In this document: positions 2,769 to 61,592 of the stretch, piece after piece
Position numbering within the stretch: position 1 is the first letter of the stretch
Layout of the letters: each line of letters begins with the position of its first letter
Assembly: GCA_040219255.1 (NCBI GenBank)
Contig: JAVJSW010000049.1
Location: 58,067 to 122,066, forward strand
Source: Sumerlaeia bacterium
GTDB lineage: Bacteria; Sumerlaeota; Sumerlaeia; SLMS01; JAHLLQ01
DNA length: 64,000 nt
Direction of reading: 5' to 3'
The notes under the pieces: generated by a model
What the model saw: only the letters and a program-made list of their open reading frames with translations
The model's database searches: none
What the model was told of the DNA's origin: nothing
Made by a program: the position numbers and the translations under genes

Positions 2769-3864
2769 TGTTGTATTTCGTTATCTTTGCTTGGGTGTTG
2801 CCATTGCTGGGGTGGCCTCAGTCTTCGCCGGAGAAGGTAATCCGAGTATTCCTACGAGTTGCTTGCCCCAGGAAAGCATTTGCTATGGGGATCCGAACGA
2901 CCCGCAACCATGTCCGGCTAACTCGGGAAACCCAAATCCAGACGTATGTACGGGAACGTCAAATGGACTGACCGTCGACTGGCATTGGTACCAAATCTGT
3001 GTTGAACGTGAACTCTGTGTAGGTGACAAGATTGATGAATCCGTCATCCGTATCAACGGGTTGCAGCATCCAACAGTACTCCCGGTTCAGTACAGCCCGT
3101 CAGTGGTTACCGAGGCAGGAGTTATTGCTGTGAATGTCAGCTTTGCCTACCCTTGCTGTAGAAACTACGACTTCGGGTGTTGGGGTGACCCGGTCGGAGT
3201 GACCCGGACGGTGTTTATCAAGGTTCATGAATACGTCAGGAATGGTGATGTGGTTCCGCGTGGAGGTATGCGACGAATTGCGGCCGTCATGGGCATAGAT
3301 TCGAGTAATAATTTGCATAATCACGACTATCGCCATGCGCCCGCACCAAGAAAAGATGTTACTGGCTTCGATTATGGTAAGACCGCATCTACTATTGCTA
3401 ACGACCTATGCTTTGTAGACGTTACCGCGAACTATTATACCAATGCTTTTTGTCAATACACATTGACGGTAAGTAAGGGTGCTGTTGCTGGGAGTTACGC
3501 GATCGCGAGCGTTGGGGCGGAGTTGTCCTCGCCAAATGGAAGTAAAAACAAGGGGTACGGAGTAACTACGGAAAACGAAGCACTAAGCGTAACTTTTATT
3601 TTTGGGACACTTTTGGAAGTGTCTTGTAGTCCCGTAGGGAATACTCACACCGCGGATGGAAACTTCACATTGGCTATATCGGACGAAGAGCAGAAAAACC
3701 CGCACGAACCCAAGAAGACCCACGATATCACAGACCCAACCGACTTGACGGTCGAAGCACAGGCTAGGATTAATCTTAGCTTTTCCATGGCAGACGCCTA
3801 TATATTGGGTTCAATTAGCGAGAGCGCACCAGACTCAGGCAAAGTTTTTGATTGGGGGAACTAA
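2758..3864 (+). CDS. Hypothetical secreted cysteine-rich protein (13 Cys, 368 aa); low-GC island gene A.
   Basis: ORF 2737..3864. Met at residue 8 begins MKFSVVFRYLCLGVAIAGVASVFA (signal peptide). AT-richer codon usage than the flanks. No motif I recognise. Confidence 0.6.
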   Translation: MKFSVVFRYLCLGVAIAGVASVFAGEGNPSIPTSCLPQESICYGDPNDPQPCPANSGNPNPDVCTGTSNGLTVDWHWYQICVERELCVGDKIDESVIRINGLQHPTVLPVQYSPSVVTEAGVIAVNVSFAYPCCRNYDFGCWGDPVGVTRTVFIKVHEYVRNGDVVPRGGMRRIAAVMGIDSSNNLHNHDYRHAPAPRKDVTGFDYGKTASTIANDLCFVDVTANYYTNAFCQYTLTVSKGAVAGSYAIASVGAELSSPNGSKNKGYGVTTENEALSVTFIFGTLLEVSCSPVGNTHTADGNFTLAISDEEQKNPHEPKKTHDITDPTDLTVEAQARINLSFSMADAYILGSISESAPDSGKVFDWGN

Positions 3865-3867
3865 GTG

Positions 3868-4842
3868 ATGGGGAGCCTGTCTAGAATAATTCCTAGTCCA
3901 TGGATGGCAGCATTTCTTGCATTGGGATTGGTTTTTTGCTACAATTCCGCGGCTATTGCGTCCGATTCAACGGTTGTAGATTGGAAAATGGATGCCGCAT
4001 GTGAGAACGACTTTTCTTCTTTCTTGGCAGATGAGGATGTTAGAAACGCCCTCAATGAACGGTATTCGCAAATAGAAGAATTACTTCTTGAGTTTGAAGG
4101 CGACAAATTGCCGATCAAGGTGTGGTTTCAGAAGTCGGTCTGTATGGATTTGGAAAAGCTCAACATCAACTTTTCAAGAGTTGATCGGGAACAATTTCCC
4201 AGTTTTTCGGCCTTCATTAGATGGAGCAATGATGCATTCGTCGGCGAAGCTACGGAGAGTATCAATACCGTCATGAGAGAAGGTATTACCCTGCAGAGCG
4301 CAGAAACTGACATCGAGGACTTCACGGTGTTTGCCGCAGCAGTCAGGGACTTGCTCCGTAACCATTGGTGCAAGGGTGAGAATTTGTACATTTGGAGAGA
4401 GAGGTTGTCTCCGCAAGTTTCAGCTGCTGCGGACGAATATGGGAATGTTGTGTCAGGCGGTTTGGCTCATGAAGAGTACGACGCACTTGTCGGCCAATTG
4501 GTAGAGTTTGACCTAGGGATTCAACTAAAGGCCCAGGTACAATCACTAGTGAAAGTATATTCTGATGATAGGCTAAATATATTTACAACGGGGCTGTACT
4601 ACCGCCGTTCCTATGACGAAGATCCACTAGAAGTCTATAATTCGTACGTGAAAGGCTGTTTGGACTGTCGCATTTTTCATGCGGAAATCTCGAAGCACCT
4701 GAATGGGTTTTATCTTTACCCGGTTTTCGATGCATTCACATTTGGAAAAACTCGGAAAGTTCACAGAGTTTCTTCGGCGTCGCTGAATGACCCTGCGTCT
4801 GATAGTCTCATCCCCTTTGATGTCGATGAGTACTGCGATTAA
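3868..4842 (+). CDS. Hypothetical secreted protein (325 aa); low-GC island gene B.
   Basis: ORF 3865..4842 (GTG then ATG). Signal-like N-terminus MMGSLSRIIPSPWMAAFLALGLVFCYNSAAIA. Begins 1-4 nt after the gene A stop (coupled). Low GC. Confidence 0.6.
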   Translation: MGSLSRIIPSPWMAAFLALGLVFCYNSAAIASDSTVVDWKMDAACENDFSSFLADEDVRNALNERYSQIEELLLEFEGDKLPIKVWFQKSVCMDLEKLNINFSRVDREQFPSFSAFIRWSNDAFVGEATESINTVMREGITLQSAETDIEDFTVFAAAVRDLLRNHWCKGENLYIWRERLSPQVSAAADEYGNVVSGGLAHEEYDALVGQLVEFDLGIQLKAQVQSLVKVYSDDRLNIFTTGLYYRRSYDEDPLEVYNSYVKGCLDCRIFHAEISKHLNGFYLYPVFDAFTFGKTRKVHRVSSASLNDPASDSLIPFDVDEYCD

Positions 4843-5016
4843 GCAATTCTACTCGGCTGGCTCTTATGGAGGACAAATTGAACTGCCGCGAGGCATAGGA
4901 TTTTCCCCATTGCCCCCGCCCGCCCCTTCCCCTTCCCTGTCAGGCGCAATCCCTGACGGAGCGTTTGCCTCGTGCGATTTCCCAGTGAGTTGTGGGCCTG
5001 CGGCGAGCAGGCTCGC

Positions 5017-5370
5017 ATGGCGTCCAGCCTGGCCGAGTTGATGGCCGCCGAGCCGTTGATCCTGACGGATCGGCTGACGAATTCGATCTATTTCAATCCC
5101 CCGGCGGAAGCCCTCTTCGGCGCCACCGGCGAGGAGTTGGTGAACCGCGTGACGTTCTCGCTGCTGGGGATGGACGGCGGCGCGCAGCCGCCCCCGCCCG
5201 CCATGGTGGCGGCGCTGCTGGGCGAGGCGGGGCCGTGGAAGGCGCTGCTGCACCTGCCCGCCGAGGGGGGGGCGCGCACCGTCATCTGCGAAGCGTCGGC
5301 GGTCAAGGACCGCACCGGCGAGCTGATTTGCGGCGTGATCCGTCTGAGCCCAAAGGAGGTCGCGCGATGA
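5017..5370 (+). CDS. Stand-alone PAS (sensory box) domain protein, ~117 aa.
   Basis: ORF 4972..5370; Met at residue 16. The stretch PLILTDRLTNSIYFNPPAEALFGATGEELVNR matches the PAS core consensus (I-x-D-x-x-G-x-I-x-x-N-x-A-x-x-x-x-G-Y). Its end overlaps the purN start by 4 nt. Confidence 0.5.
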   Translation: MASSLAELMAAEPLILTDRLTNSIYFNPPAEALFGATGEELVNRVTFSLLGMDGGAQPPPPAMVAALLGEAGPWKALLHLPAEGGARTVICEASAVKDRTGELICGVIRLSPKEVAR

Positions 5371-6002
5371 AAATCGGCGTTCTGATTTCCGGCCGCGGAT
5401 CGAACCTTGAGGCGCTCCTCAAGGCCAAAAAGCGCGGGCAGCTCGAGGCGGCGGAGTTCGTCCTGGTCGTCAGCAACAACCCGGACGCGCCGGGTCTGGA
5501 ACGCGCCCGCGAGCGCGGCATCCCAACGCTGGTGCTGGATCATCGCAGCCACCGCACGCCCGATGACCGCCTGGATCGCGCAGGCCATGAAGCCGCCGTG
5601 GTCGATGCGCTGCGCGAGGCGGGCGCCGACGCCGTCGTCCTGGCCGGCTGGATGCGCATCGTGGGCGAGCGCCTGCTTGCCGCCTTTCCCGGCGCCATCA
5701 TCAACATTCACCCCTCCCTTCTGCCCAGCTTCCCCGGCCTCCACGCCCAGCGCCAGGCCCTCGACCACGGCGTCAAGGTCACCGGCTGCACTGTGCATTT
5801 CGTGGACGACGGCATGGATACGGGCCCGATCATCGTGCAGCGCGCGGTGCCGATTCTGGAGACGGACGACGAGGCGAGCCTCTCGACCCGTCTCCTGCGC
5901 GAGGAGCACGGCGCCATCGTCGAGGCGGTGGACCTGTGGTCTCAGGGGCGGCTGGCCATCGAAGGCCGCCGCGTGCGCGTGCGATCATTAAGAACCGGCT
6001 GA
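5367..6002 (+). CDS. purN: Phosphoribosylglycinamide formyltransferase (PurN).
   Basis: MKIGVLISGRGSNLEALL..., the catalytic HPSLLPSFPG, and the DxG (MDTGPII) folate-binding motifs. AAGGAGG Shine-Dalgarno 7 nt upstream of the ATG. Confidence 0.9.
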   Translation: MKIGVLISGRGSNLEALLKAKKRGQLEAAEFVLVVSNNPDAPGLERARERGIPTLVLDHRSHRTPDDRLDRAGHEAAVVDALREAGADAVVLAGWMRIVGERLLAAFPGAIINIHPSLLPSFPGLHAQRQALDHGVKVTGCTVHFVDDGMDTGPIIVQRAVPILETDDEASLSTRLLREEHGAIVEAVDLWSQGRLAIEGRRVRVRSLRTG

Positions 6003-7136
6003 TTCGACGCGCCGGTACACGGCGAGGGTGCCCTCGACCATGCGGCCGGTGCTGAAGCGCTCGCGAACGGTCGCCGGTCCGGCTTGGGCAAAGGCTTCGC
6101 GGCGGGCGGGATCTTGCCAGAGAGCCGCCAACGCCTCGGCCAGCGGCCCCGGAGCCCGCGGCGGCACCAGGACGCCATTCTCCCCGTCGCGCACGATGTC
6201 TGGAATGCCGCCGGTGCGCGCCGCTACGCACGGCAGGCCCACCGCCATGGCGTCCAGCAGCGCCGTCCCTAGGCCTTCCAGCTTGCTCGGCAACACGAAC
6301 AGGTCGAAGGCCGCGAGGTGCTCGGCCACGTCCTCGCGCCACCCTGTCAGCCGCACCCGCTCGCCGAGACCGAGGGCCGCGATGCGCGTCTCCATGTCGG
6401 GGCGCAGCTCGCCCTCACCGACAAAGACGACGCGCGCCCCCGGCAGGCGTTCGATCAGCGCGGGCACGGCTTCGATCAGGTTCAGCGGGTCCTTGTGATC
6501 GACATAGGCGCCGACGGTTCCGATCACCGGACCCGGCTCCTCGACGCCCCACGCGGCGCGCAGGCGCTCGCGGACGGCGGCTCGGGCGTCGCCCGCGAGC
6601 ACAAAACGCCCGGGATCGACTCCGCTGGGCACGAGGGTGATGCGTTCTGGCGCGACGCCCCCGGCGCGCAGCTCGGCCGCGATGGCTTCGCTGATGGCGA
6701 TGTAGTGCAGGTTTCCCGCCCCATATTTTCGCCGCGACGCCCAGTTGGTCTTGATCGGAAAATCCACCCGCCGCGTCACCACGACGTCCGATCGGCCGCG
6801 GGAAGCCTTCAGCGCCAGCGCATGCCCCGCGCCCGTGTGGGCGTGCAGGATATAGCCCTCATAATGCGCCAGACGATGCACCGCCCACTCGGCTCGCGGG
6901 TCCCAAAGCCGCCACGGCGGCACCTCCAGCACGTCGAATCCCTCGGCGCCTGCGCGCCGTGCCAGTTCACCGCCCCGGCGCGCGGCCAACAACTGGCGGA
7001 TCGGTTCGCCAGTCTCGGCCCGCGCGCGCAAGCCCCGCATCAACGCCATGACCTGACCCTCGCCACCGCGAAAACCCTTCTCGGTGTCGATGTGCAGGAT
7101 GCGCAGTTCGGGGCGGTTCAAAGCGGGAGGGGGCAC
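5988..7136 (-). CDS. Glycosyltransferase family 4 (GT-B, RfaB/WcaL-like).
   Basis: N-terminal ILHIDTEKGFRGGEGQV. C-terminal GT4 signature FVLPSKLEGLGTALLDAMAVGLPCVAARTGGIPDIV (E-x7-E motif). Its 3' end overlaps purN convergently by 15 nt. Confidence 0.85.
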   Translation of the reverse strand: MPPPALNRPELRILHIDTEKGFRGGEGQVMALMRGLRARAETGEPIRQLLAARRGGELARRAGAEGFDVLEVPPWRLWDPRAEWAVHRLAHYEGYILHAHTGAGHALALKASRGRSDVVVTRRVDFPIKTNWASRRKYGAGNLHYIAISEAIAAELRAGGVAPERITLVPSGVDPGRFVLAGDARAAVRERLRAAWGVEEPGPVIGTVGAYVDHKDPLNLIEAVPALIERLPGARVVFVGEGELRPDMETRIAALGLGERVRLTGWREDVAEHLAAFDLFVLPSKLEGLGTALLDAMAVGLPCVAARTGGIPDIVRDGENGVLVPPRAPGPLAEALAALWQDPARREAFAQAGPATVRERFSTGRMVEGTLAVYRRVESAGS

Positions 7137-7220
7137 AAGCGGAGTACTTAAGAGCGATGGCGCGGACAGAACGCCCGCGCCATCGAAGAATAGCCTCAGG
7201 TGCTTTCCGGGGGGAAAGGT

Positions 7221-9470
7221 TTAGTAGCGGGTTTCCGACGGCGGGGGCAGGACCGGCTGCGAAGGACGGGCGCCACCGCCTCCATCGGTCGGCGAAGGCC
7301 GGCGGGTTTCTTCCTCGCGGTCCCTTTCCGAACCGGGTTCGGCGGGGCGGTCCTGACCGCCACGGGTGCGGACGGGAGCCTCGCCGCCGCCGCCGCGATT
7401 GCCACCGCCACCGCCAATGGAGGCGCTGCCGCCGGTCGCCTGCGGCCGGAAGTTCGAATCGCGGCCCGCGCCGGCGGCCGGCTGGCGCACTTCGCGGGTC
7501 ACGCCCAACTGCTCGAGTTCGCCCGCCACCCCGGCGCCTTCCGCGCCAGACATCAAGTCCGACGGATCGAAATCGAAGTCCCCAGCCTCGATGTCCTCCA
7601 GGCTGATGTCTTCATCCGCGGCGGGCGCATAGCTCTCCGTGTTCTCCGCATAGTTCGTCACCATGCGGCCCCGTCGGCCGTCTTCGTTGATCTGGCGGGG
7701 GATGGTGTCTTCCACGATGGTCGGGGTGATGAAGATTTGGAGTTGAGTTCTATTGGTCGTGGTGGAGCGCGAACCGAAAACCGGCCCCACAACGGGCAGG
7801 CTCGAAAGGAATGGCAAGCCGCCGTTTGTCTCCGCGTCCGAGTTCGTGATCAAACCACCGATCACGCGCGTCTGTCCCGAGGGAATCGTCAAGATCGTTT
7901 CCAGCGTTTGCGTATCGCTTCGGATCAGAGTGAATTCCTCGCCGTCAGCCAACCGAGTGACCGGCTGGGCATCGTCGTTGTCGATCTGCAAGTCCAGCTC
8001 GATCAGATAGCTGTTGGAAATCGAGGGGGTCACTTCGAAAGTCAAACCGTCGCGCACCGTCTGCTGGGTTTGTGTGCGGAAATTGTTCACGTTGTTTGTA
8101 TCGGTGATCGTCGAAAGGAACGGTTCCTCCGAACCGACGCGAATTCGCGAGGCTTCCTGATTCTTCACCAGCAGGCGCGGCTGGAGAAGAGTCTTCGTGT
8201 TGGTGTCTTCAAAGGAGGCTTGATACTCGATGAAAGCTTCGTCGCCCAAGTAAGCGCCAGCAAGCTGGTTGCCGCTCAGCGCCAGGTAAGGAAAGGTCGA
8301 CGCCAATTCCCGGAATCCCATGCCGTCATCGTCATCATCGATGGTTCCGACGGGATTTCGGGGACCAACCCGCGTGCCAGCCGCGTCCGGTGGATTGATA
8401 AACGGATCGCCCGAGATCGCAGCCTGCTGAAGCCCGATGTTGAAGCCACGATTGAACGTCGTCTGCAAGATCTCGGCTTGGATCAGCACCTGCTTCACCG
8501 GACGGTCGAAACCAGCCAGGATCTGCTCCACGCGCTCGTGGACCTCGGGCACGTCTTCCAGGATGAAGACACCCTGCTTGTCATTGATTTCAAACAGCAG
8601 GTCCGGCGTGCGGATGGTCTCGATGATCTCCTGCAACTGCTCCAGGTCCTCGCCGTCGATGCCGATGTTGTTCACATCGTAGATGACGATTTCCGGACCC
8701 ACGTCCAGGATGTCGATCAGCAGCTCCATCTTCTTGATGTTGCTCAGCAGGTCCGTCACAATGATCTGGTGGGTTTTCGGGTCCACCTCGATGGTACCCG
8801 GGTCGCTCTTGTAGGTTTCGATTTTCTGGGCGATGTCCTCCACGTCGGCGTAGCGCAGGTAGAAGACGCGGGTAAAGAGCTGGACGTCGATTTCACGGAT
8901 CAGGCGCTCGATGCGCTCGATCACGTCGGGCAGATCGCTGACGATGATTTTGTTCGTGCGGTTGTCGCTCGTGATGCTGCCGATGTCGCGGGTCAGGGCG
9001 GGTCGGATCGCCTGCTCCAACTCCGCCGCGTTCACATGATCGGGGCGGAAAATCTTCGTGATGACTTTGTTCGGCAGGATATTCTGGCGGTACCATTGCT
9101 CATCGGCGATGCCGAATGTGCCGTCGTCCTGCTTGAACCACACCAGATTGTTCGGCGTGGCAAGACTCGTCAGTGCTTCCTCCAGGGTGGCGTCCGGTTT
9201 GAAAATCGAGACCCGCTGGCCAACCGCGCGGCCAAAGGCCGAGATGCTGGTGTCGGCCTGATTCCCGAGGACCTGCAGCACGATTTCGATCTTGGCGTCG
9301 TTGAACACCGCCTTCACTTTGCGGTCGCCGGGGTTTTCGGCCATTTCCTGGGCCCGGGCGGTGCCCGGCAGGCCGAGGGCCGCCGCCACCAGCAACGCCC
9401 ACAGCACCGGCCACAGGGCCGCGGCGGGGCGGGAGAGGATTGAACGAAGGGGGGTGATCAACGTGGTCAT
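7221..9470 (-). CDS. Secretin (GspD/PilQ family outer-membrane channel) with multiple N-domains and a Gly/Arg-rich C-terminal tail.
   Basis: ORF 7221..9632; Met55 begins a signal peptide (MTTLITPLRSILSRPAAALWPVLWALLVAAALGLPGTARAQE). Several NolW-like N-domains (RVFYLRYADVEDIAQKI...IIVTD). Secretin C-domain signature GGLPFLSSLPVVGPVFGSRSTTTNRTQLQIFITPTIVED. The last ~70 aa are GGGGNRGGGG / RD-rich. Confidence 0.85.
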   Translation of the reverse strand: MTTLITPLRSILSRPAAALWPVLWALLVAAALGLPGTARAQEMAENPGDRKVKAVFNDAKIEIVLQVLGNQADTSISAFGRAVGQRVSIFKPDATLEEALTSLATPNNLVWFKQDDGTFGIADEQWYRQNILPNKVITKIFRPDHVNAAELEQAIRPALTRDIGSITSDNRTNKIIVSDLPDVIERIERLIREIDVQLFTRVFYLRYADVEDIAQKIETYKSDPGTIEVDPKTHQIIVTDLLSNIKKMELLIDILDVGPEIVIYDVNNIGIDGEDLEQLQEIIETIRTPDLLFEINDKQGVFILEDVPEVHERVEQILAGFDRPVKQVLIQAEILQTTFNRGFNIGLQQAAISGDPFINPPDAAGTRVGPRNPVGTIDDDDDGMGFRELASTFPYLALSGNQLAGAYLGDEAFIEYQASFEDTNTKTLLQPRLLVKNQEASRIRVGSEEPFLSTITDTNNVNNFRTQTQQTVRDGLTFEVTPSISNSYLIELDLQIDNDDAQPVTRLADGEEFTLIRSDTQTLETILTIPSGQTRVIGGLITNSDAETNGGLPFLSSLPVVGPVFGSRSTTTNRTQLQIFITPTIVEDTIPRQINEDGRRGRMVTNYAENTESYAPAADEDISLEDIEAGDFDFDPSDLMSGAEGAGVAGELEQLGVTREVRQPAAGAGRDSNFRPQATGGSASIGGGGGNRGGGGEAPVRTRGGQDRPAEPGSERDREEETRRPSPTDGGGGARPSQPVLPPPSETRY

Positions 9471-9641
9471 GAGTCTCGGGGGCTCCATGGCTCCGGGTTC
9501 GGGTCGCGTCGCGTGGTTGGTTTCAACCGGTTCGCACCTGAGGCAGGGTTTCAGGCTTTCGCCGATCATGAGGCGAGGTGTCACGCGGAAAGTTCCAGCG
9601 GCAAAGGGAGAGTGCTCAGGCGGGGTCTTCAAAACGGGGGC

Positions 9642-10574
9642 TCAATTCACGGGGAGGGGTTGGTCGAGGGTTTGGATGAGGGCGGTGATGTTTTCCAACT
9701 CTTCGATAGAATAGGCATGAACGATCAATTTTCGTTTTTCATCCAGCGCGGTGGCATCCACACTGTCGGGAGCCGAGATAGACAAAATGGCTCGAGCCAG
9801 GTCCGAAGGTTTCTCATGTTCAAGGCGGAAGACGCGGATCGGTCCTCCATGGACGCAGAATTGATGTCGTTGAAACCACATGTTCGTGGAAACATGATAT
9901 CCACGCTCCTCGCAACCTAACCACCTCCAATCATGTGGAGCGCACAAGGTGTCGAGGGCTCCTTGCAAGGTTTCCGTGGTCAGAACCAAATTCACATGGA
10001 CGTCGGCTTTTGCCAAGTGACCTATAGGACGAATGTCCGTTGCATAACGATTGGAAAGTATCTCGAGTACATCCCTCAACGGAACCTTTCGAAGGATCGT
10101 CAATTTCGATGCGATCTCCGGCGTCAACACACGTCCAGGGCCAGAACTCTCGTAGAGTGATTTCAATTCTTCCGGTGACGGTAGGTCGGCTGCCCCACTT
10201 CGCCGTCTGCTCTCAATCCACGTTCGATCGGAATAGAAGTATCCGCCATAGAAGTTCTTCTCCCAACTCCCATCGGTCTGGTCGGCGAGAAGAGACAGCA
10301 CGCTTTCGAGCGCGGGGGTCGTGAGCTGGTCCTCGGACTCGAGCGAGAAACTAACCGGCAGCGTCAACTCGACCAGTCCCGAAGGGCAGACGCTGATCCC
10401 AGATGCTTTCGATAGAATCGCCAAAGCCTCACGAACCGGCACATCACGATACACCGTCCGCGAAGTCACGGCTTCCTCTCTGATTGGCGAAGAGATCGCC
10501 CGACCCGCAGGCGCCCCGGCTAAAGCCAATGGCGCCAACGAAAGACAAAGGTAAAGTAGAGCTGGTCGGAACAT
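9642..10574 (-). CDS. Periplasmic protein built of secretin-N-terminal-like modules (STN-like + NolW-like), no secretin pore domain; putative secretin partner.
   Basis: Signal peptide MFRPALLYLCLSLAPLALAG. VPVREALAILSKASGISV (STN-like). IRVFRLEHEKPSDLARAILSI...LIVHAYSIEELENITALIQTLD (NolW-like alpha/beta module). The 3' two-thirds of the gene is noticeably lower in GC than the 5' third. Confidence 0.6.
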   Translation of the reverse strand: MFRPALLYLCLSLAPLALAGAPAGRAISSPIREEAVTSRTVYRDVPVREALAILSKASGISVCPSGLVELTLPVSFSLESEDQLTTPALESVLSLLADQTDGSWEKNFYGGYFYSDRTWIESRRRSGAADLPSPEELKSLYESSGPGRVLTPEIASKLTILRKVPLRDVLEILSNRYATDIRPIGHLAKADVHVNLVLTTETLQGALDTLCAPHDWRWLGCEERGYHVSTNMWFQRHQFCVHGGPIRVFRLEHEKPSDLARAILSISAPDSVDATALDEKRKLIVHAYSIEELENITALIQTLDQPLPVN

Positions 10575-10644
10575 CGGTCACGCTCGCGAAGAGGAGGTAT
10601 GCGGGAGTCCGGGAGGGCCAAACGCGGGCCAACTCCACCGCCCC

Positions 10645-11208
10645 CTACGACGGCGCCGCGGCCGCTTCCCCCACGTCCTCCTCCACCGCCAGATCCAACG
10701 CCTCCACCACCGGCTTCAGCCGCTGCAAAACCCGCCGCTCATCGTAGATCAGCAGGCGGTTGCCCTCCTCGTCCACGACGATGCGGCCGTGGGCGCGCGA
10801 GAGGTGCGGGGCGATGAGCGGAATCAGTTCGCTGGCGGGGCGGTGCTCGAGCTGGAGCACCATCGGCCGGGGGCGGTCGCCCAGCATTTCGCGGTCGTAA
10901 AACGCATGGTCGCAGAGGACGAAATCGCCTCCGTCCCGCCGGAACCACACCCATTCGTTTTTCGCCGCGATTTCCGAGAGGGCGTTCTCCAGCGTCGAAC
11001 TCGTCGCCCGCAGGCTCACCCGCGCCGCCGTCACTTCACCCTCCGCCACGATCCGTTCGCGAAAACCATAGCCCAACGCCGTCAGCACCACCGTGGCGGG
11101 CGCGTCATGGAACGCCAGCGTGATCGGCCGGCTCGTGGCGATGTCCGCCGAACCCGCGCACGCGGGCGACACAAGGAGGCTGAGAAGAGCAAGCACCACA
11201 TACCGCAT
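10645..11208 (-). CDS. Small periplasmic protein with secretin-N-domain-like fold (STN/NolW-like), first gene of the secretin operon.
   Basis: Signal peptide MRYVVLALLSLLVSPACAGSA. ITLAFHDAPATVVLTALG (STN-like). MVLQLEHRPASELIPLIAPHLS..GRIVVDEEGNRLLIYDERRVLQRLKPVVEALD (NolW-like). 70-nt gap to the next gene on the same strand. Confidence 0.55.
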   Translation of the reverse strand: MRYVVLALLSLLVSPACAGSADIATSRPITLAFHDAPATVVLTALGYGFRERIVAEGEVTAARVSLRATSSTLENALSEIAAKNEWVWFRRDGGDFVLCDHAFYDREMLGDRPRPMVLQLEHRPASELIPLIAPHLSRAHGRIVVDEEGNRLLIYDERRVLQRLKPVVEALDLAVEEDVGEAAAAPS

Positions 11209-11418
11209 GATTTCGAAAACCCCAGGTGGCCTGACTGCGGAGGGTGGCAGAAGTAGGCGTCGTCTTCAAGGGAAATGACTGACAAAACGCATTGGGAGTT
11301 ACAAACACGAGTTGCGAAATCATTGCTTTAGGATTTTTTTGACCATTCGATAAATGGCGAAAGGGATTGTGATACTCGTCCAAACCTGGAATCCTCCGCG
11401 TTTAAGACGACTCCCTGG

Positions 11419-13257
11419 GTGAAGGCCACGAGAATGAAGGGCGCCACGCTCTTACTTTCAACCCTATTTTTGATTGTGGGACGGATGAGCCTTTTCGCCG
11501 CCACCCCGCTCTTCCACGATGCCACCACCTCCCTCGGCATCACCCACAGCCACCAGTCCGAATCCATCCCCGGCGACCCCACCGCCAACGTCCAGTGGAT
11601 GACCGGCGGCGTCGCCGCCGAGGACTTCGACGGCGACGGCTGGATCGACCTGTACGTGCTCCAGGCGGCCGAGGCAGGCAAGAACCTCTACTATCGCAAC
11701 CGGGGCGATGGCGCCTTTGTCGAGGAAGGCCGCGCCCGGGGCGTGGATGTCGCTGGCCGCTCCTTTGGCGTGGTGGCCGGCGATTACGACAGCGACGGCG
11801 ACATCGACCTGTTCGTCAGTTTCTGGACCGCCCCCCACATGTTGCTCATCAACGATGGCCTCGGTCAGTTCCGGCGCCGCACCCTTTCCGGCCCGCAAGG
11901 CATCGAGCACTTCAACGTGATGAGCCCATCGTGGGGCGACATCGACAACGACGGCGACCTGGACCTGGCGCTGGGCCAATGGACCAGCCGCGAAACCGGC
12001 AACTTCTGGATCTACCGCAACCTTGGCGGGGGAGCCCTCGCCCCGCCCGCACCCCTGCGCGACTGGCAGACCACCCCCCAGTTCTACGTCTTCACCCCCC
12101 GCTTCGCCGACGTGAACAGCGATGGGTTCCAGGATCTCCTGCTGGCCTGCGATTTCGAAAACTCCCAGCTCTGGCTCAACGACGGCACTGGCGAGTTCAC
12201 CTACGCGGGCAAGGCCGCTGGCGTCGGCATTGACCAGAACGGCATGGGCGCCGACGTGGCCGACCACGACAACGATGGCGACCTGGATTGGTTCGTAACC
12301 AGCATTTTCGTCCAGAACAGCCGGTTCGGAAACCGCCTTTACCGCAACCGGGGCAATGGCACCTTCCTCGATGTCACCGAACCGGCTGGCGCGGCGGATG
12401 GGTCATGGGGCTGGGGGGCCAGTTTCGGCGACCTCGACCTCGACGGCGACCTCGACCTCTTCCACGTCAACGGCTGGTCCACCGAACGATTCCTCGGCGA
12501 CACCTGCCGCCTCTTCGTAAACCAGGGCAACGGGCGCTTCATCGAAGCCGCCGCCGCCGCCGGAGCCGCCGACCCGGGCCAGGGCCGGGGCATGGCCATG
12601 GCCGATTTCGACAACGATGGCGACCTGGATATCTATGTGGCGAACAGCTTCATCATGACGCGCGAGCGAGGCATTATGCATCCCGCCCCGCCCGCCCTGC
12701 TGCGCAACGACTCACTGACCAGCGGCACCTGGCTCAAGGTGCACCTCGAAGGCCGCGCCCCAGTCCATCGCCAGGGCGTCGGTTCGCGCGTGCGGGTTCG
12801 CACCGGGGCCAGGACTCAACTGCGGGAACTCCACGCCTCGTCGAACTTCCTGTCCTCCGGCCCGGGACGCATCGCCCACTTCGGGCTCAACGGCGAGATC
12901 GAAGCCGACGAGGTCCGCGCCGATTGGGTGGGCGGCGACACATCGATTTTCTACCGCGTGGCGGCCAATCAGGATCTTCTCATCGAGCAACCGGGCGCCG
13001 CACTTACCAGCCGCACCGTCCACGCTGGCACGCCCTTCGAAGCCACGTCCGGCAAGGCGGGCGATGGCCTCCTGCGAATGTGGACGGCGGCCGGCGAGAG
13101 CAAATCCGATCCCGCAACCTTCGTCTTTTCAGTCACCGGACCGGCCACCCTGACCCTCGAAACGCGCAGCCCCGACGGCGCCACGCTCCTGAGCCGCGAG
13201 ACCCTGCGGCTCACCGTCCTGCCGCCGGGCGACGGCGTGAAGTGGGTGGTGCGCTAA
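11419..13257 (+). CDS. FG-GAP repeat / ASPIC-UnbV (CRTAC1-family) secreted protein.
   Basis: Signal peptide. Repeated DxDGDGxxDLxV / DNDGDLD calcium-binding FG-GAP motifs at least 6 times. C-terminal UnbV_ASPIC signature RELHASSNFLSSGPGRIAHFGLNG. Confidence 0.85.
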   Translation: MKATRMKGATLLLSTLFLIVGRMSLFAATPLFHDATTSLGITHSHQSESIPGDPTANVQWMTGGVAAEDFDGDGWIDLYVLQAAEAGKNLYYRNRGDGAFVEEGRARGVDVAGRSFGVVAGDYDSDGDIDLFVSFWTAPHMLLINDGLGQFRRRTLSGPQGIEHFNVMSPSWGDIDNDGDLDLALGQWTSRETGNFWIYRNLGGGALAPPAPLRDWQTTPQFYVFTPRFADVNSDGFQDLLLACDFENSQLWLNDGTGEFTYAGKAAGVGIDQNGMGADVADHDNDGDLDWFVTSIFVQNSRFGNRLYRNRGNGTFLDVTEPAGAADGSWGWGASFGDLDLDGDLDLFHVNGWSTERFLGDTCRLFVNQGNGRFIEAAAAAGAADPGQGRGMAMADFDNDGDLDIYVANSFIMTRERGIMHPAPPALLRNDSLTSGTWLKVHLEGRAPVHRQGVGSRVRVRTGARTQLRELHASSNFLSSGPGRIAHFGLNGEIEADEVRADWVGGDTSIFYRVAANQDLLIEQPGAALTSRTVHAGTPFEATSGKAGDGLLRMWTAAGESKSDPATFVFSVTGPATLTLETRSPDGATLLSRETLRLTVLPPGDGVKWVVR

Positions 13258-13415
13258 GGCGAAAAGATATTGCTTGCGCTCGAAAGGGATCACGGGAATA
13301 GATTTTTCCTGATCAGCAAATTTACCAGATGAATTCATCAGGCCGCCTTTCTTCCAAGGGACGACCCTCATCCGAATTGCTCCCGGGGACATTGATTTCG
13401 CTCGAGAATGGCTCA

Positions 13416-14822
13416 ATGATGAAACTCTCGGTTTTTCTTTTCTCGCTCCTAATCTGTTCCGTCAGCACGAGTGGTCAGTCGCAACAGACTGCGGATTCAC
13501 AGGAATACGTTTTGTCTGTATTTGAAGCCCATTTGAGGGCGATGCTCGACTTGAGTTCTGTTCAGGGCTTCGGCACCTTTGAGACAATTCAGTATGGAAG
13601 GCCTACCGAGGTTGATCAAGGCGTTCTTGCCAGCCGGATGCGGGAGTACAAAGCGTCATTCTCTCAAGGCGTTCCTAGTTCGCAAGGCATGACGGATGAG
13701 CAGGCATACGCGCTGGCTCTTCATTCTTTTGAGAAACCGACAGAACGGATTCAAGCCCCCTTTACTTTAGCCAGGTATCACGATCAGTTCACAGTAACAT
13801 TTCGAAACTTGATCGTTCAGACTTCGAGTTACGGGGATAATGGCAATGTCACAACTCATGCTCAGCCAAAGCTCCAAGCCTTTTCGAGTCGAGGAGATTT
13901 GACTGTTCGATTTTCTGAAGGGTGGGAGGCCACGCGAGGGAAGAACACTGCGGAAATCGAAGAGACTGCCAATATCCCTTACGTCATGTTTTGGGGATTG
14001 GGCTCATTTCTCGATTCGCGTTTCCATGACATCAATACTACTGGCTTCCTGATTCATATGTCAAGACAGAATCCCTCCATCATTTCGGAAAGCCAACAAG
14101 CAATTGAAATCAGAATCGAGAATCCCGCAACTAAAGTCCCTGACATCTTTGTTTTTGATAAGAACAAGGACTTTGCTTTACTGGAGAGGCGGACATATCG
14201 AATGGGTTCGTCTGGCGAACCTTACTTGCATTCACATGATGTATACAGTGAGTATGTTTCATCGAATGGCCGATGGTGGCCCCGCTTGACCGAGCGAATT
14301 CGTTATCGCGACCCACAGCCAAATACCGACTCCGAAATTGACAGGAAAGAGCGGATCGCTTTCGACGAGATCGCCGTTGATGGTATCGTCGAGAAGGAGA
14401 AGTACGATTTCCTGATCCCTGCCAATACTCATTTTCAGGCTGGCTATGGTTTGAAAAACCAGGCCATCCTTGCGAAGTTGCCATACTTGCAGGAGTTTCC
14501 CGTTCATTTGTCAAGTATCGAAGAGAGCTTTCTTGACGCACCCGTTCCAGGTGTCAACGTCCACGACGATTTCAACTTGTCCGAGTCCGAAGCTCAGGAA
14601 GACATTCCAAGTCGTCAGCAAACAGCGATTTCGAAAAACCTGAGTCCCCCAGACGGTGAATCAAGCGATGTTCGAGAAGCTGAGCCGCGTGCAAACACAG
14701 CCACCGGGCGGACCTCTCAGTTTCCCAGGAATCTAATATATTTTAGCCTGGCCTTGACTGGTATCCTTGCGGCTGTCGCTGGGCTGGTAGCCCTGACCCG
14801 GCTAATCGCTACGAAACGGTAA
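13416..14822 (+). CDS. Hypothetical protein with N-terminal signal peptide and C-terminal transmembrane anchor (469 aa); low-GC island 2.
   Basis: ORF 13329..14822; Met30 begins MMKLSVFLFSLLICSVSTSG. C-terminus NLIYFSLALTGILAAVAGLVALTRLIATKR is a TM helix with a basic stop-transfer. GC is much lower than the flanks. No recognisable catalytic motif. Confidence 0.6.
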   Translation: MMKLSVFLFSLLICSVSTSGQSQQTADSQEYVLSVFEAHLRAMLDLSSVQGFGTFETIQYGRPTEVDQGVLASRMREYKASFSQGVPSSQGMTDEQAYALALHSFEKPTERIQAPFTLARYHDQFTVTFRNLIVQTSSYGDNGNVTTHAQPKLQAFSSRGDLTVRFSEGWEATRGKNTAEIEETANIPYVMFWGLGSFLDSRFHDINTTGFLIHMSRQNPSIISESQQAIEIRIENPATKVPDIFVFDKNKDFALLERRTYRMGSSGEPYLHSHDVYSEYVSSNGRWWPRLTERIRYRDPQPNTDSEIDRKERIAFDEIAVDGIVEKEKYDFLIPANTHFQAGYGLKNQAILAKLPYLQEFPVHLSSIEESFLDAPVPGVNVHDDFNLSESEAQEDIPSRQQTAISKNLSPPDGESSDVREAEPRANTATGRTSQFPRNLIYFSLALTGILAAVAGLVALTRLIATKR

Positions 14823-15102
14823 TCGGCAAGAGAAAGTCAATCTGACCGCTCTTGATCGATTGCTGTGAATTCATGTCTGTCGAGTGGGCCCTGGGCGTCA
14901 AAGATAGGAAGTGTTTCGAAAGGTCGGGAGGCAACGGCCATGCGGATCGTGGATGAAGCTCCTAACTCGATATTTCGCCTGAGAAGTTAGAATTAGGCCG
15001 GTTTTCCGAAACCGTCGACATCTTCAGATGAAGGTGTTAACTACCTCAAAGCTCGTCTGGGCAATCGGCTAGATCACAAGCTTTCTCGCGTATCTAGGCA
15101 GC

Positions 15103-17109
15103 CTACGCCAGCGACGCCACCGCGTCTTCCAACTCCTCCGCCTCCACCTGCGCCGTGACCCATCGCTCCTCGGTCTTTTCCAGGTCGCTGCGGATCTGCT
15201 CCAACTCGGCGGTCAGCCCGGCCAGCTTGGGCGCGTCCGTCGCCACCGCCGGATCCGCCATTTCGGTTTCCAGGTCGCGGCGCCGCTGCTCCAGGCGGGT
15301 CTGATTCTCTTCCAACTCCTGAAGCTCTTTCGAGATTTTCTTGAGCTGCTTTTGCAGGTCGTTGCGCTCGTTCCGGCGGAGCCGTTTCTCCTCGGCGGAC
15401 AGCTCCCGTTTGGGAGCTTCCATCTGCGCTGCGGAGCCGTTTGAGTTGGGTACGGAAAGCGCCGGTCCGGAGGAGACTTTCTGCGCTTTGCCTTCTTCCT
15501 GCAAAGCCTTCAGCGACAGGTACGTCTCGAAATCGCCGGGGTAATCGTGAAGCTGCCCGTCGCGCACCTCCACCACCCGCGTCGCCACGTTGTCCAGGAA
15601 GTACCGGTCGTGGCTCACGATGACTACCGCGCCGTCGTACTGGCGCAGCGCGTTCTCCAATGTCAGGCGGCTGCCGATGTCGAGGTGGTTGGTCGGTTCG
15701 TCGAGCAGCAGCAGGTTCGAAGACCCGCACAGCATCTTCGCCAGGCGCAGACGCGTTTTCTCGCCGCCGGAAAGCATCGCGATGGACTTCTGGACGTCGT
15801 CGCCGCGAAAGAGAAACGCGCCTAGAATGTCGCGCGACCGGTCGCTCACCGACAGGGGAGCGCTGCTCTGGAACTCGCCGAGTACCGTATTCGCCGGGTG
15901 CAGGTCCTCGTAGTCGTACTGGGCGAAGTATTCGAGCGAGACGTTGCTGCCGAGCGCCAACTTACCCGAATCGGGCTTCAGCTTGCCCGCCAGGAGCTTC
16001 ATGAACGTGGACTTGCCCGCGCCGTTCACGCCCACCAGGGCGACTTTCTCGCCGCGATAGAGGGTGAAGTCCACATGGTCGAGAACGTGGTTCCGGCCAA
16101 ACGCCTTGTCCACCTTCTCGACGGCCACCACTTCCTTGCCGCAGCGCGGGGCGCTCGGGAACTTGAACGCGATGGTGCCCTCCGCGTCCTCCGGCGGTTC
16201 GATCATCTCCAGCTTCTCGAGCTGCTTGACGCGGCTCTGCACCAGCGCCGCCTTGCTCGCCTGATAGCGGAAGCGGTCGATGAAGGCCTGCACGTGGGAA
16301 ATCGCCTGCTGCTGATTCTCGTAGGCGCGGCGCTGCATTTCCCGCATTTCGTCGCGCTTCGCCAGCGACTCGCTATAATTGCCGCGATAAATCACGGCGC
16401 GGCCACGCTCCAGCGCGATGGTCTTGTTCACCAGCTTGTCCATAAAGGCGCGCTCGTGGCTCACCATCAGGATCGAACCCTCGTGCTGCAGCAGCCAGTC
16501 GCCGAGCCACTCGATCGTTTCGATGTCCAGGTGGTTCGTCGGTTCGTCCAGCAGCAGGATGTCCGGGTTGCGCAGCAACAGCTTGCCCAGGGCGATGCGC
16601 ATCTGCCAGCCGCCGGAGAAATCCCGGCAGCGCTTCTGCAAATCCGCCGGTCCAAAGCCCAGCCCCGCGAGCACTTTGGCGATGTGCGAGTCCATACTGT
16701 GCACATCGCGGCGCATCGTTTCGTGCAGCAGATAATCGTAGCGCTCGGCGATCTTTTCGTATTCCGGACCGTGGTGATCGGTGATTTCCGTCATCCGATG
16801 TTCCAGCTCGCGCATCTCCGCCTCATAGGCCAGCGCTTCCTTGAACACCGTGCGGCACTCTTCTTCGACTGTGTTGGGCGTATCCAGGGTCAGTTCCTGG
16901 GGCAGGTAGCCGATTTCGTTGCCCTTGCCGGTGGAGACGTTGCCCGTCTCCGGCTTCAGGATCCCGGCGACGATTTTGATCAGGGTGGATTTCCCGGCCC
17001 CGTTGGGGCCGACGATGGCGCAGCGCTCGCCGTCCTCGACGCGAAAGCTGGCGTCTCGGAGGATGTGGCGGGCGGCAAAGTGGAGGTTGACGTTAATGAC
17101 TTCGAACAT
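15103..17109 (-). CDS. ABC-F family ATPase (Uup/YheS-like, two ABC cassettes plus C-terminal coiled coil).
   Basis: Two Walker A motifs (GPNGAGKST, GVNGAGKST). Two ABC signatures (FSGGWQMR, LSGGEKTR). Two Walker B motifs (LLLDEPTNHLD twice). No TM domain. K/E/R-rich coiled-coil tail. Confidence 0.9.
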   Translation of the reverse strand: MFEVINVNLHFAARHILRDASFRVEDGERCAIVGPNGAGKSTLIKIVAGILKPETGNVSTGKGNEIGYLPQELTLDTPNTVEEECRTVFKEALAYEAEMRELEHRMTEITDHHGPEYEKIAERYDYLLHETMRRDVHSMDSHIAKVLAGLGFGPADLQKRCRDFSGGWQMRIALGKLLLRNPDILLLDEPTNHLDIETIEWLGDWLLQHEGSILMVSHERAFMDKLVNKTIALERGRAVIYRGNYSESLAKRDEMREMQRRAYENQQQAISHVQAFIDRFRYQASKAALVQSRVKQLEKLEMIEPPEDAEGTIAFKFPSAPRCGKEVVAVEKVDKAFGRNHVLDHVDFTLYRGEKVALVGVNGAGKSTFMKLLAGKLKPDSGKLALGSNVSLEYFAQYDYEDLHPANTVLGEFQSSAPLSVSDRSRDILGAFLFRGDDVQKSIAMLSGGEKTRLRLAKMLCGSSNLLLLDEPTNHLDIGSRLTLENALRQYDGAVVIVSHDRYFLDNVATRVVEVRDGQLHDYPGDFETYLSLKALQEEGKAQKVSSGPALSVPNSNGSAAQMEAPKRELSAEEKRLRRNERNDLQKQLKKISKELQELEENQTRLEQRRRDLETEMADPAVATDAPKLAGLTAELEQIRSDLEKTEERWVTAQVEAEELEDAVASLA

Positions 17110-17335
17110 AGCGGCGGGACACTAGGCAGAGGGGGGCTGTCCAGGCAACGGGCAAAGTGGAGTCTTTCTGTGGTTTTTCTCGGTCGCCGCGAAAGCGTTC
17201 TCAGCGCCTTTGAATACCGCCCCCACCAGGGCGGTAGGGGCTGCGGCTTTGCCAAGCCCGACTGAAGGATTGCGCCCCGCTTCGCCGCGTGCCAATTCCT
17301 TGTCCCATCCCGCCGAGGAAGGAGCCCGCCGCGCC

Positions 17336-17902
17336 GTGGCTGATTCCGCTAAAGTCTTCGCGATCGAACGACCGCACGTGAACCTCATCAAGCTCTACAT
17401 TCTGCGGTCCTGCATCCTGCCGCCGTTGAGTTTCATCGGCTTGCCGCTGCTCTATTTCCGCTACCACACCATGCGCTATCGTTTCGACGACGAGGGCATC
17501 GGCATGAAGTGGGGCATCCTGTTCCGCCGCGAGGTCAACCTGACCTACGCCCGTATCCAGGACATCCACATCACCGCCGGGCCCGTGCAGCGCTGGCTCG
17601 GCCTCGCCGACATCCACATCCAGACCGCCTCCGGCAGCGCGGCGGCGGAAATGACCATCGAGGGCCTGCAGGAGTTCGAGGAAATCCGCGACTTCCTCTA
17701 TGAGAAAATGCGCGGCGTGAAGGACGAGAAGAAAGCCCGCGCCGCCGGGGAGCTGCCCGGGGCGGCGGCAGGAGCGGCCGCGGCGCCGGGGATGTCTCCG
17801 GCCGAGAGTACCCAGCTCGTCACGGCACTCGCTGAAGTCCGCGACGAACTGCGCGGAGCCCGCGCGGCGCTCGAGCGCCTCGCCCCTGGCGGGGAGGGAT
17901 AA
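17336..17902 (+). CDS. bPH_2 (YdbS/YdbT-like bacterial PH domain) membrane protein.
   Basis: ORF 17210..17902. The N-terminal 42 aa of the ATG-initiated frame are low-complexity, so a GTG start at 17336 (VADSAKVFAIERPHVNLIKLYILRS...) is more plausible; the true start is uncertain. TM hairpin then PH-like YFRYHTMRYRFDDEGIGMKWGILFRREVNLTYARIQDIHITAGPVQRWLGLADIHIQTAS. Confidence 0.6.
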   Translation: MADSAKVFAIERPHVNLIKLYILRSCILPPLSFIGLPLLYFRYHTMRYRFDDEGIGMKWGILFRREVNLTYARIQDIHITAGPVQRWLGLADIHIQTASGSAAAEMTIEGLQEFEEIRDFLYEKMRGVKDEKKARAAGELPGAAAGAAAAPGMSPAESTQLVTALAEVRDELRGARAALERLAPGGEG

Positions 17903-17905
17903 GCC

Positions 17906-18739
17906 ATGTACAGTCTCCTCAAAGCCCCCATCCTGAAAATCCTCAAGGTTCCGCCCGAGCCCGAGGACCCCTTTGGCAACAGCCGCAGCCTGAAAGTCTT
18001 TCGCGCCGCGGAAGGCTATTTCCACTACAAACTCATCACCTTCCTCATCGGACAGCTTTTCGCCTTCATCGGCCTCGTGGTCGGTGTCGTGATTTTCTTC
18101 ATCGCGGTGTCCTCGGAAATCCAGGACCCGACTCTGCGCACGATCGTTCTCGTGATCGAGGTCGGCGCCGTCCTGTTCTTTTTCCTCCAGTTGCTCTTGA
18201 ATCTGGCGTTGCTTCGGCTCGAATACGAACTGCGCTGGTATAAGATCACGGACCGCAGTTTGCGTATCCGCGAGGGCGTCTGGAGCGTGCGGGAAATGAC
18301 CATGTCCTTCGCCAACATCCAAAACATCTCGATCAGCCAGGGGCCGCTCCAGCGGCTCTTCAAGATCGCCGACCTCAAGGTCCAAAGCGCCGGCGGCGGC
18401 GGCGTGGTGGAAGCCCAGCAGGCCCAGCAGTCGGGCGCCGTGAACATGCACCTCGGCTATTTCCGCGGCGTGGACAACGCCGAGGAAATCCGCGACCTGA
18501 TGCGCGAGCGCCTGCGCCGCCTGCGCGACTCCGGCCTGGGCGATCATGACGAATCGGCCGACGAAGTCCCCGCGGATGTGACGCCCCCCACGCAGCCATC
18601 GCTCCAGATGCTCGACGGCACGGATTGGCAGGGACTCCTGGCGGACCTGCGCGGCGAGGCCAAAGCCTTCCGCGCCGCCGCCGAGCGCCTCTCCTCCGCA
18701 CCGCGACAATCCAACGGCGGGACAACCGAAACCTCTTGA
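17906..18739 (+). CDS. bPH_2 (YdbT-like) membrane protein, second of the pair.
   Basis: Starts 4 nt after the previous stop. TM segments (LITFLIGQLFAFIGLVVGVVIFFIAV), then YKITDRSLRIREGVWSVREMTMSFANIQNISISQGPLQRLFKIADLKVQSAGG (bPH_2 pattern). Confidence 0.7.
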   Translation: MYSLLKAPILKILKVPPEPEDPFGNSRSLKVFRAAEGYFHYKLITFLIGQLFAFIGLVVGVVIFFIAVSSEIQDPTLRTIVLVIEVGAVLFFFLQLLLNLALLRLEYELRWYKITDRSLRIREGVWSVREMTMSFANIQNISISQGPLQRLFKIADLKVQSAGGGGVVEAQQAQQSGAVNMHLGYFRGVDNAEEIRDLMRERLRRLRDSGLGDHDESADEVPADVTPPTQPSLQMLDGTDWQGLLADLRGEAKAFRAAAERLSSAPRQSNGGTTETS

Positions 18740-27396: not shown

Positions 27397-27491
27397 AAAG
27401 GGTCTGAATCATAGATGCGCCACAATTTTCCCTCGCTAAACTATTTTCCTTCCACTCATTGCTTGGATTTCGAACAGGACCGCTCAAAAGT

Positions 27492-33070: not shown

Positions 33071-33356
33071 CGGGGGTGGTCTCCGTGAGGGTGTTGAGGC
33101 GATGGGCGAGGAGTTCGATTTCGAGGAGGGTCTTGGTCATGGCGAAGGCATTCTTGAGTTCCGCCAGACGGTCCGGCGCCGGCAGGCGCGCGTGGGAGTT
33201 TTCGGCCTCGGAGAGGGAGGCGTCGAAGAGGGCGAGCCAGCGCTTGAGGAGCCCGTGGGCGAGATCGAGGGTGGGGCGCCATTGGGGCTCTTGGGGTGGA
33301 GGGGTTGGCTTGGACATGGGTGAGGGGGGCCTTTCGGTGGCGAGTTGGAAAGGCAT
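32985..33356 (-). CDS. Small acidic helical protein upstream of and overlapping the terminase gene (candidate small terminase/DNA-recognition subunit or regulator). Start uncertain (33356 or 33317).
   Basis: ORF 32985..33422. Overlaps the terminase start by ~85 nt, a common small/large terminase arrangement. No motif recognised. Confidence 0.4.
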   Translation of the reverse strand: MPFQLATERPPSPMSKPTPPPQEPQWRPTLDLAHGLLKRWLALFDASLSEAENSHARLPAPDRLAELKNAFAMTKTLLEIELLAHRLNTLTETTPDDDDFLAHLEKLGPDLLAGHLSSASEDD

Positions 33357-33416
33357 GGAAACACAGACGGTTTCGTTTGTCCCCTCATGTGGAGCTTCGG
33401 GAGAAAGAAAGACAAA

Positions 33417-33488
33417 ATACACTTATCAGACAAGATTCACCTGTCAGACAAAACGCACCTATCAGACAAGACAGACCTGTCAGACAAG
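33417..33488. repeat. Four tandem 18-bp direct repeats (iteron-like): ATACACTTATCAGACAAG / ATTCACCTGTCAGACAAA / ACGCACCTATCAGACAAG / ACAGACCTGTCAGACAAG. Consensus A-N-N-C/G-A-C-(C/T)-T-R-TCAGACAAR.
   Basis: Read directly from the sequence. Unit length is exactly 18 with no spacers. The array lies ~60-130 nt 5' of the small ORF/terminase operon on the minus strand and ~280 nt 5' of the Fe-S carrier gene on the plus strand. Confidence 0.8.
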
Positions 33489-33769
33489 TGGGCGAAAAGA
33501 TCCGGTGCGGAGGAAAGCCCCCACGGCTGGACGGGGAGGCGGGCGGTGAAGAGGCCCGATTGTCCAGGTTTCCGAAAAGAAGCCTGGACACTGGGAAAGA
33601 CGGCGCGGCGTTGGAAGGCAATAACTGGACACCATGCCGGGAATTGTGAGCGGGAGGGAGTTGGCAAGAAGTCTGCTACTCAGAGACGTGACGCGCCTTT
33701 TTGGCGCTTGGAATCACAGAACCCCCGAATTATCAACACTTTGCGAAGAGGCACAGGAGAGGTGGAGAG

Positions 33770-39333: not shown

Positions 39334-39366
39334 TCGGAAGCCGGAGGCAACGGATTGACAGGAAAA

Positions 39367-60826: not shown

Positions 60827-60847
60827 AGGCTCGAATGGAGATTCACG

Positions 60848-61585: not shown

Positions 61586-61592
61586 GGACGGC

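Follow-up and report, generated by a model that had tools for sequence, protein, structure and literature searches.

The window analysed here, a stretch of 64,000 nucleotides on one contig, contains a segment of 1843 bp whose base composition departs abruptly from that of its surroundings and which the first-pass annotation had read as horizontally acquired. This raises two linked questions: whether the segment is foreign DNA or a native part of the genome, and what kind of protein its one gene encodes. The host is an uncultured bacterium, and its genome is the MAG G1-WW12-26 (SAMN36815396), which comes from the metagenome of a culture of Coleofasciculus sp. WW12 that was not axenic (PMC11785472). 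The MAG measures 5.35 Mb at a GC content of 0.64, with estimates of 97.75% completeness and 4.49% contamination, and is placed in Sumerlaeia, order not assigned.

A compositional step around a single gene

The segment at 13258-15100 has a GC content of 0.492, against about 0.64 in the host and a mean of 0.629 over the window as a whole. Measured over 200-bp intervals, GC stands at 0.65-0.69 from 12900 to 13299 and at 0.43-0.55 throughout 13300-15099; the next interval, 15100-15299, is back at 0.705. Equal-size pieces of the host have a mean GC of 0.638 (sd 0.030, minimum 0.547), which places the segment at z = -4.9. In a two-boundary maximum-likelihood fit, composition changed at 13261 and at 15095, each point no more than 8 bp from the stop codon of a neighbouring gene. 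The sharp fall over some 1.8 kb reported in the first-pass annotation is thus confirmed, as is the location between two conserved genes. Upstream lies a gene with FG-GAP and UnbV_ASPIC domains (11419-13257; Pfam E 2.7e-50 and 1.2e-10), and downstream a convergent ABC-F gene (15103-17109), whose stop faces that of the gene in the segment. The low-GC islet occupies the entire gap between these two neighbouring stops. The only other low-GC stretch on the kilobase scale in the window is island 1, at 2626-4900; where the two are compared, the islet is referred to as island 2. Its features are as follows.

13258..13415, plus strand: low-GC 5' spacer, defined from the GC profile, with an in-frame ATG at 13329 inside it
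13416..14822, plus strand: coding sequence of the orphan envelope protein, 468 aa, stop codon included in the coordinates (NCBI MEQ8821069.1, RLY93_12570)
13416..13475, plus strand: signal peptide, residues 1-20, MMKLSVFLFSLLICSVSTSG, assigned from hydropathy and the Lys3 n-region
13479..13970, plus strand: N-terminal half of the ectodomain, residues 22-185, predicted to be helix-rich (low-confidence AF2)
13971..14450, plus strand: conserved domain, residues 186-345, predicted to be beta-rich and shared with the relative P0002
14451..14732, plus strand: low-complexity linker, residues 346-439, assigned from composition
14733..14795, plus strand: C-terminal TM helix, residues 440-460, LIYFSLALTGILAAVAGLVAL, with hydropathy of up to 2.25
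14796..14822, plus strand: basic cytoplasmic tail (+3), residues 461-468, TRLIATKR, followed by the stop, read from the sequence
14823..15102, no strand: low-GC 3' spacer, from the stop of the orphan gene to the facing stop of the ABC-F gene, GC 0.49-0.55

The segment indeed holds a single large ORF, as first described, and the gene is real and intact: at the composition of the segment, a run of 497 open codons has a probability of about 2e-11 of arising by chance. That length is the one obtained from an alternative upstream in-frame ATG at 13329, the start used in the Logan call (P0003), whereas the NCBI call (P0001) begins at 13416. Since neither ATG is preceded by a convincing ribosome-binding site, the start is ambiguous between the two. 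No terminator-like site was detected between the stop of the ASPIC gene and the start of the orphan gene, or in 14823..15102; a promoter scan gave nothing above chance, and Rfam returned no match in the 3' spacer.

A step of this kind might in principle be an artefact, produced by an assembly chimera, by contamination during binning, or by a non-coding stretch in which an ORF had appeared by chance. The contamination estimate for the MAG and a composition so sharply unlike the flanks are compatible with this. Against it, high-GC host genes lie on both sides of the islet in one contig, and the Logan assembly of run SRR26147846 matches positions 3329-15708 of the window at 100% identity. Logan represents a second assembler working on the same reads as the contig; since its assembly agrees base for base over this range, the junctions of islands 1 and 2 are reproduced. 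The small chance probability of so long an ORF and a homologue conserved at the protein level (P0002, described below) likewise speak against an artefact, which we consider so improbable that it deserves hardly any weight.

Architecture, topology and relatives of the orphan protein

The first-pass annotation had described an N-terminal Sec signal, a C-terminal hydrophobic helix and a basic tail, and all three are present in P0001 (residues 1-20, approximately 440-460 and TRLIATKR). In the signal peptide, an n-region with Lys3 leads into a hydrophobic core of 13 residues, and this into a c-region of small residues, S-T-S-G, with a putative cleavage site; the Kyte-Doolittle mean over 19 residues is 1.65 at residues 1-19. 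Hydropathy peaks are confined to residues 1-20 and 439-467. Between them lie a core of about 325 aa (residues 22-345) and a linker of about 90 aa, which is net acidic, with 15 D+E, 7 K+R and 23 S+T+P in residues 346-436. AlphaFold2 models from two runs had a pLDDT of 34-37, with the linker below 50 throughout and the TM helix as the only part that reached 73-85; the secondary structure given for the N-terminal half of the ectodomain comes solely from these low-confidence models.

With a signal peptide, one TM helix at the C-terminus and basic residues clustered behind it, P0001 fits the type I bitopic class. An outer membrane is very likely in the host, since the window encodes a Secretin protein (E 1.4e-31), two Secretin_N proteins and a YfiO/BamD-like TPR protein (E 2.7e-11). 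Taken together, an outer membrane, a Sec signal and a stop-transfer helix with a basic tail point to an anchor in the cytoplasmic membrane and a domain in the periplasm. P0001 is therefore most likely a type I inner-membrane protein with a periplasmic domain and a predicted positive-inside topology. It follows that the earlier description of a surface-anchored protein is probably wrong, as in an apparent diderm (secretin, BamD/YfiO-like protein) the anchor would sit in the inner membrane and the domain would be periplasmic. In its signal peptide, TM helix, tail and linker, P0001 resembles other inner-membrane proteins of diderms with bitopic type I (N-out, C-in) topology; what unites these is topology and not homology, and membership gives no functional information. 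At about 7 residues, the cytoplasmic tail of P0001 is too short for signalling.

We also considered a bacterial lipoprotein and rejected it. The lipobox consensus at the end of a signal peptide is [LVI][ASTVI][GAS]C. Compared with it by eye, the residues before Cys14 read L-L-I in P0001 and I-F-V in P0002; the residue at -1 is bulky, and neither protein has a lipobox.

The middle of the protein had been said to contain no recognisable motif, and this holds: searches of Pfam (even at E <= 10), NCBIfam, PHROGs and PADLOC were blank for P0001, P0002 and six fragments. P0001 likewise had no match among PDB sequences or, by tblastn, among phage and plasmid records, and a word-indexed search of 5.8e9 proteins returned P0001 itself only. 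An origin from a prophage or a defence system was rejected, there being no PHROG or PADLOC match. Remote homology yielded no match to a family but did reveal one distant relative. In an exhaustive phmmer search of 1.84e9 cluster representatives, a single borderline hit was found, P0002 (E 8.4e-4 library-wide), a protein of 465 aa encoded on a 2888-bp contig of JGI metagenome sample 3300075153. The two proteins align collinearly from end to end at 22% identity (pairwise BLASTP E 3e-11), and P0002 has the same succession of signal peptide, core, linker, TM helix and Arg-rich tail, the latter ending in SRRRRDL.

Similarity between the two is distributed very unevenly. Residues 186-345 give a Smith-Waterman score of 98 against P0002, compared with a mean of 27.8 for shuffled sequences (z = 16.6); the linker is weakly conserved (shuffle z = 2.7), and for the N-terminal half (residues 22-185) no similarity to P0002 was detectable (shuffle z = -0.8). 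Within the conserved domain, the invariant positions include G285-x-W287-x-P289-R290 and V321-x-G323 ... D331-F332-x-x-P335-A336-x-T338. Used as a query, P0002 behaved as a singleton and brought in no further relatives, and no Pfam domain occurs in the small genes that neighbour it. A profile built from the two sequences (A2) found no further members in the protein database, metagenome contigs, viral contigs or PDB sequences, nor among 7139 ORFs of the loci that were fetched. On the basis of this sequence comparison, P0001 and P0002 define a candidate new family of envelope proteins, with two known members among some 15 billion proteins.

The C-terminus of the two proteins also invites another reading, namely that motif, helix and basic tail together serve as a signal for a sorting enzyme of the sortase, exosortase or rhombosortase type; this signal would be cleaved, leading to covalent attachment at the cell surface. 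LPXTG (TIGR01167), PEP-CTERM, MYXO-CTERM and PVV-CTERM domains likewise consist of a C-terminal helix and a basic cluster preceded by a Pro-containing segment, and both homologues show this tripartite layout at their extreme C-terminus, where a Pro located 3-5 residues ahead of the helix is invariant. P0001 moreover contains L-A-L-T-G, similar to an LAxTG motif, and the tail of P0002 gave sub-threshold matches to LPXTG_anchor (14.9 bits, cutoff 15.9), PVV_CTERM (12.5, cutoff 27), LAVTG and MYXO-CTERM (8.4, cutoff 20). However, these matches span only the helix and basic tail, include no motif and all fall below cutoff, whereas the tail of P0001 had no match to an NCBIfam sorting domain even at E <= 10. 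The LALTG of P0001 is part of the helix itself and has no counterpart in P0002, which reads VSALLAG at that place, and in contrast to established sorting signals the two proteins share no signature motif. No other ORF within the window carries such a tail, and no sortase or exosortase was found among the window proteins scanned. A sorting signal is thus very improbable, and a stop-transfer anchor in the inner membrane remains our preferred reading of the C-terminus.

Foreign or native origin of the islet

The case for foreign DNA is made by GC content together with codon usage, which render such an origin plausible. GC at the three codon positions of the orphan gene is 0.54/0.42/0.52, compared with a GC3 of 0.73-0.88 in host genes, and its RSCU values show essentially no correlation with those of eight host genes (r ~0), which correlate among themselves at 0.7-0.9. 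Even a poorly conserved host gene nearby (10645-11208) has a GC3 of 0.85. For the orphan gene the likeliest history is acquisition, or at least one outside the regime that raises GC3 in the host.

None of the customary marks of mobility accompanies it. The segment contains no integrase or transposase gene and is bordered by the FG-GAP/UnbV_ASPIC and ABC-F genes, and ARAGORN found no tRNA or tmRNA in the window. Flanking direct repeats, which could have marked a target-site duplication, were searched for and are absent from the borders; the direct or inverted repeats present are matches of 10-13 nt at chance level, none of them shared by both borders. The nearest homologues of the ASPIC neighbour have 47% identity among 185,579 GTDB species representatives and 46% among 241 million metagenome records, and the ASPIC/ABC-F arrangement is not conserved at the loci of the ASPIC homologues.

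The oligonucleotide signature of the islet also resembles that of the host. The Karlin delta* between the two is 89, compared with 65 +/- 19 (maximum 116) for host pieces of equal size; depletion of TpA is common to both (0.48 in the islet, 0.39 in the host); and the normalised tetranucleotide correlation of 0.57 between islet and host compares with 0.63 +/- 0.08 for the host against itself. In addition, intergenic patches of the host have a GC of 0.48-0.53, equal to that of the islet. As put forward in the first-pass annotation, horizontal acquisition is an overreach: the GC step and the non-host codon usage speak for it, whereas the lack of mobility marks, the host-like dinucleotide signature and the intergenic-like GC do not.

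These latter observations would instead suit a native gene, restricted to its lineage and evolving fast, which may have arisen from non-coding DNA and does not carry the GC3 bias of the host. Such a gene could be expected to have the GC of host intergenic DNA, a delta* and a tetranucleotide correlation within the range of the host and the shared depletion of TpA, and to lack mobility genes and repeats; that the low-GC boundaries fall on the stop codons of the neighbours would also agree with it. On the other hand, even the poorly conserved host gene mentioned above has acquired the high GC3 of its genome, the codon usage of the orphan gene is uncorrelated with that of any host gene, and the collinear homologue P0002 comes from a metagenome sample unrelated to the host. 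Because P0002 was found there, the family predates the host genome, which argues against its birth de novo within it. We regard a native origin as unlikely, though with enough in its favour to be taken seriously.

On balance we lean slightly towards transfer of the gene from a donor of lower GC but similar composition, taken jointly with the model in which the product consists of signal, core, tether and anchor.

If the islet was acquired, did it come from the same source as island 1? The first-pass annotation had suggested a common donor on the strength of their composition, but this finds no support in the oligonucleotide signatures. The delta* between island 1 and island 2 is 124, practically the value between island 1 and the host (125), and by normalised tetranucleotide correlation island 2 is closer to the host (0.57) than to island 1 (0.48). 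The TpA ratio is 0.76 in island 1 against 0.48 in island 2. RSCU values of the two islands correlate weakly, at 0.22-0.31, and their shared low GC3 alone would yield such a correlation. That the island 1 proteins might be paralogues of the orphan protein was considered as well and rejected on comparison.

Possible function, and comparison with known islets

The topology proposed above suggests how the protein might be arranged in the envelope. Sec would export it and the signal peptide would then be cleaved; the C-terminal helix would stop transfer and anchor the protein in the cytoplasmic membrane, leaving the basic tail inside. The position of the globular domain in the periplasm would therefore be a consequence of this C-terminal stop-transfer anchoring, and on its flexible tether the domain could reach the wall or the outer membrane. 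The conserved domain, predicted to be beta-rich, probably binds a component of the envelope.

As to what that component might be, the conserved domain closes with a pattern (G-x-W-x-P-R ... V-D/N-G ... D-F-x-x-P-A-x-T) reminiscent of a LolA-like C-terminal signature, and the upstream G-x-W-x-P motif is likewise similar to LolA-like families. The LolA/LolB-like fold is an unclosed beta-barrel with a helical lid. P0001 would be like LolA/LolB-like proteins in having a periplasmic, predicted beta-rich domain that ends in V-[DN]-G-x5-7-[DK]-F-x-x-P-x-[GN]-T. We compared the A2 profile by hhalign with E. coli LolA, using a query confirmed to match PDB 1IWL. The sole alignment covered 20 residues, matching VDGIVEKEKYDFLIPANTHF to the C-terminus of LolA (Prob 0.34%, E 0.18), and was non-significant. 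It falls within residues 186-345 and in the expected register. Searches of Pfam (at E <= 10), NCBIfam and, with a profile, PDB gave no match to a LolA/LolB-like model or any other, and jackhmmer returned no LolA homologues among the fetched loci. Since the hhalign match is non-significant, we treat the LolA-like reading as a lead rather than a result; our best guess from the sequence is that the conserved domain might form a LolA-like pocket for a hydrophobic ligand.

A more far-reaching proposal is that residues 186-345 represent an undescribed and extremely rare family of periplasmic domains, tethered to the inner membrane, novel in fold or function and carried on a small transferable islet. 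We think this improbable. Such a family could possibly have accessory roles in the envelope, or roles against phages or competitors, in a symbiont of cyanobacterial mats.

How does the islet compare with known kinds? It has in common with classical mobile genomic islands a deviating GC (z = -4.9), GC3 and codon usage, but differs from them in that a mobility gene, a tRNA or tmRNA, flanking repeats and a distinct oligonucleotide signature are all missing. AT-rich ORFan islets are a closer match. Daubin & Ochman, in 2004, are said to have found ORFans to be AT-rich, and amelioration is a notion reportedly treated by Lawrence & Ochman in 1997. With islets of this kind our segment shares a low GC and GC3, a sharp step at the borders of the gene, a lack of detectable homologues apart from the distant P0002, and a secreted or membrane product. 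It differs from them in its host-like dinucleotide signature, in being without integrase, tRNA or repeats, and in the length of its gene (468 aa); ORFans are typically short.

Uncultured phyla commonly carry AT-rich orphan genes whose products are secreted or membrane-bound, so that a further case carries little weight alone. What this one offers is an example with exact boundaries, an insertion-like, low-GC segment of a single gene that has a host-like dinucleotide signature, and thus a useful case for deciding if islets like this consist of foreign DNA or of native genes at the compositional baseline of non-coding sequence. In kind it is an ordinary AT-rich orphan-gene islet; what is new is the two-member protein family.

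Composition of island 1

The dinucleotide signature of island 1, the window's other kilobase-scale low-GC stretch (2626-4900; GC 0.48), falls outside the host range (Karlin distance delta* 125), with TpA at 0.76 versus 0.39 in the host. Since this is not so for island 2, the low-GC segment containing the orphan gene, island 1 is the stronger candidate of the two for DNA of genuinely foreign origin. It carries two adjoining ORFs, neither of which had a match in Pfam, PHROG or PADLOC searches:

2737-3864, + strand, ORF with a signal-like N-terminus
3865-4842, + strand, ORF with a signal-like N-terminus

The GC level of both islands equals that of host non-coding DNA, coding DNA in this 64%-GC genome lying some 12-15 GC points above non-coding DNA. 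Short AT-rich patches (GC 0.48-0.53), mostly intergenic, are also present:

11176-11500
27351-27525
33301-33525
35501-35775
39351-39675
60701-62300

One gene, flanked by those for the secretin and for a Secretin_N protein, is of intermediate composition (GC 0.54, GC3 0.58):

9642-10574, - strand, sole domain matches Secretin_N and FecR_C, both sub-threshold

It may encode a diverged pilotin or secretin-associated protein.

Source of the sequence

The window derives from a culture metagenome of Coleofasciculus sp. WW12 (DSM 104231), a mat cyanobacterium that was not grown axenically. The MAG carrying it, G1-WW12-26, is classified to Sumerlaeia without an order, family or genus. A Logan assembly contig (L161; SRR26147846_12217) corresponds to window 3329-15708.

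The ABC-F gene and its surroundings

Directly beyond the ABC-F gene, two membrane proteins with bacterial PH domains (bPH_2) are encoded in tandem:

17210-18739, + strand, bPH_2 pair (E 1.5e-18 and 6.3e-19)

Two unrelated loci from metagenomes, of which one belongs to a Thermodesulfobacteriota MAG, have an ASPIC homologue with an ABC-F homologue about 3 kb upstream of it:

L041, 5099-7111, ABC-F homologue
L097, 2150-4156, ABC-F homologue

Across both loci the ABC-F homologues show 39-40% identity. The proximity of the two genes there is probably coincidental, and their layout is unlike that of the window.
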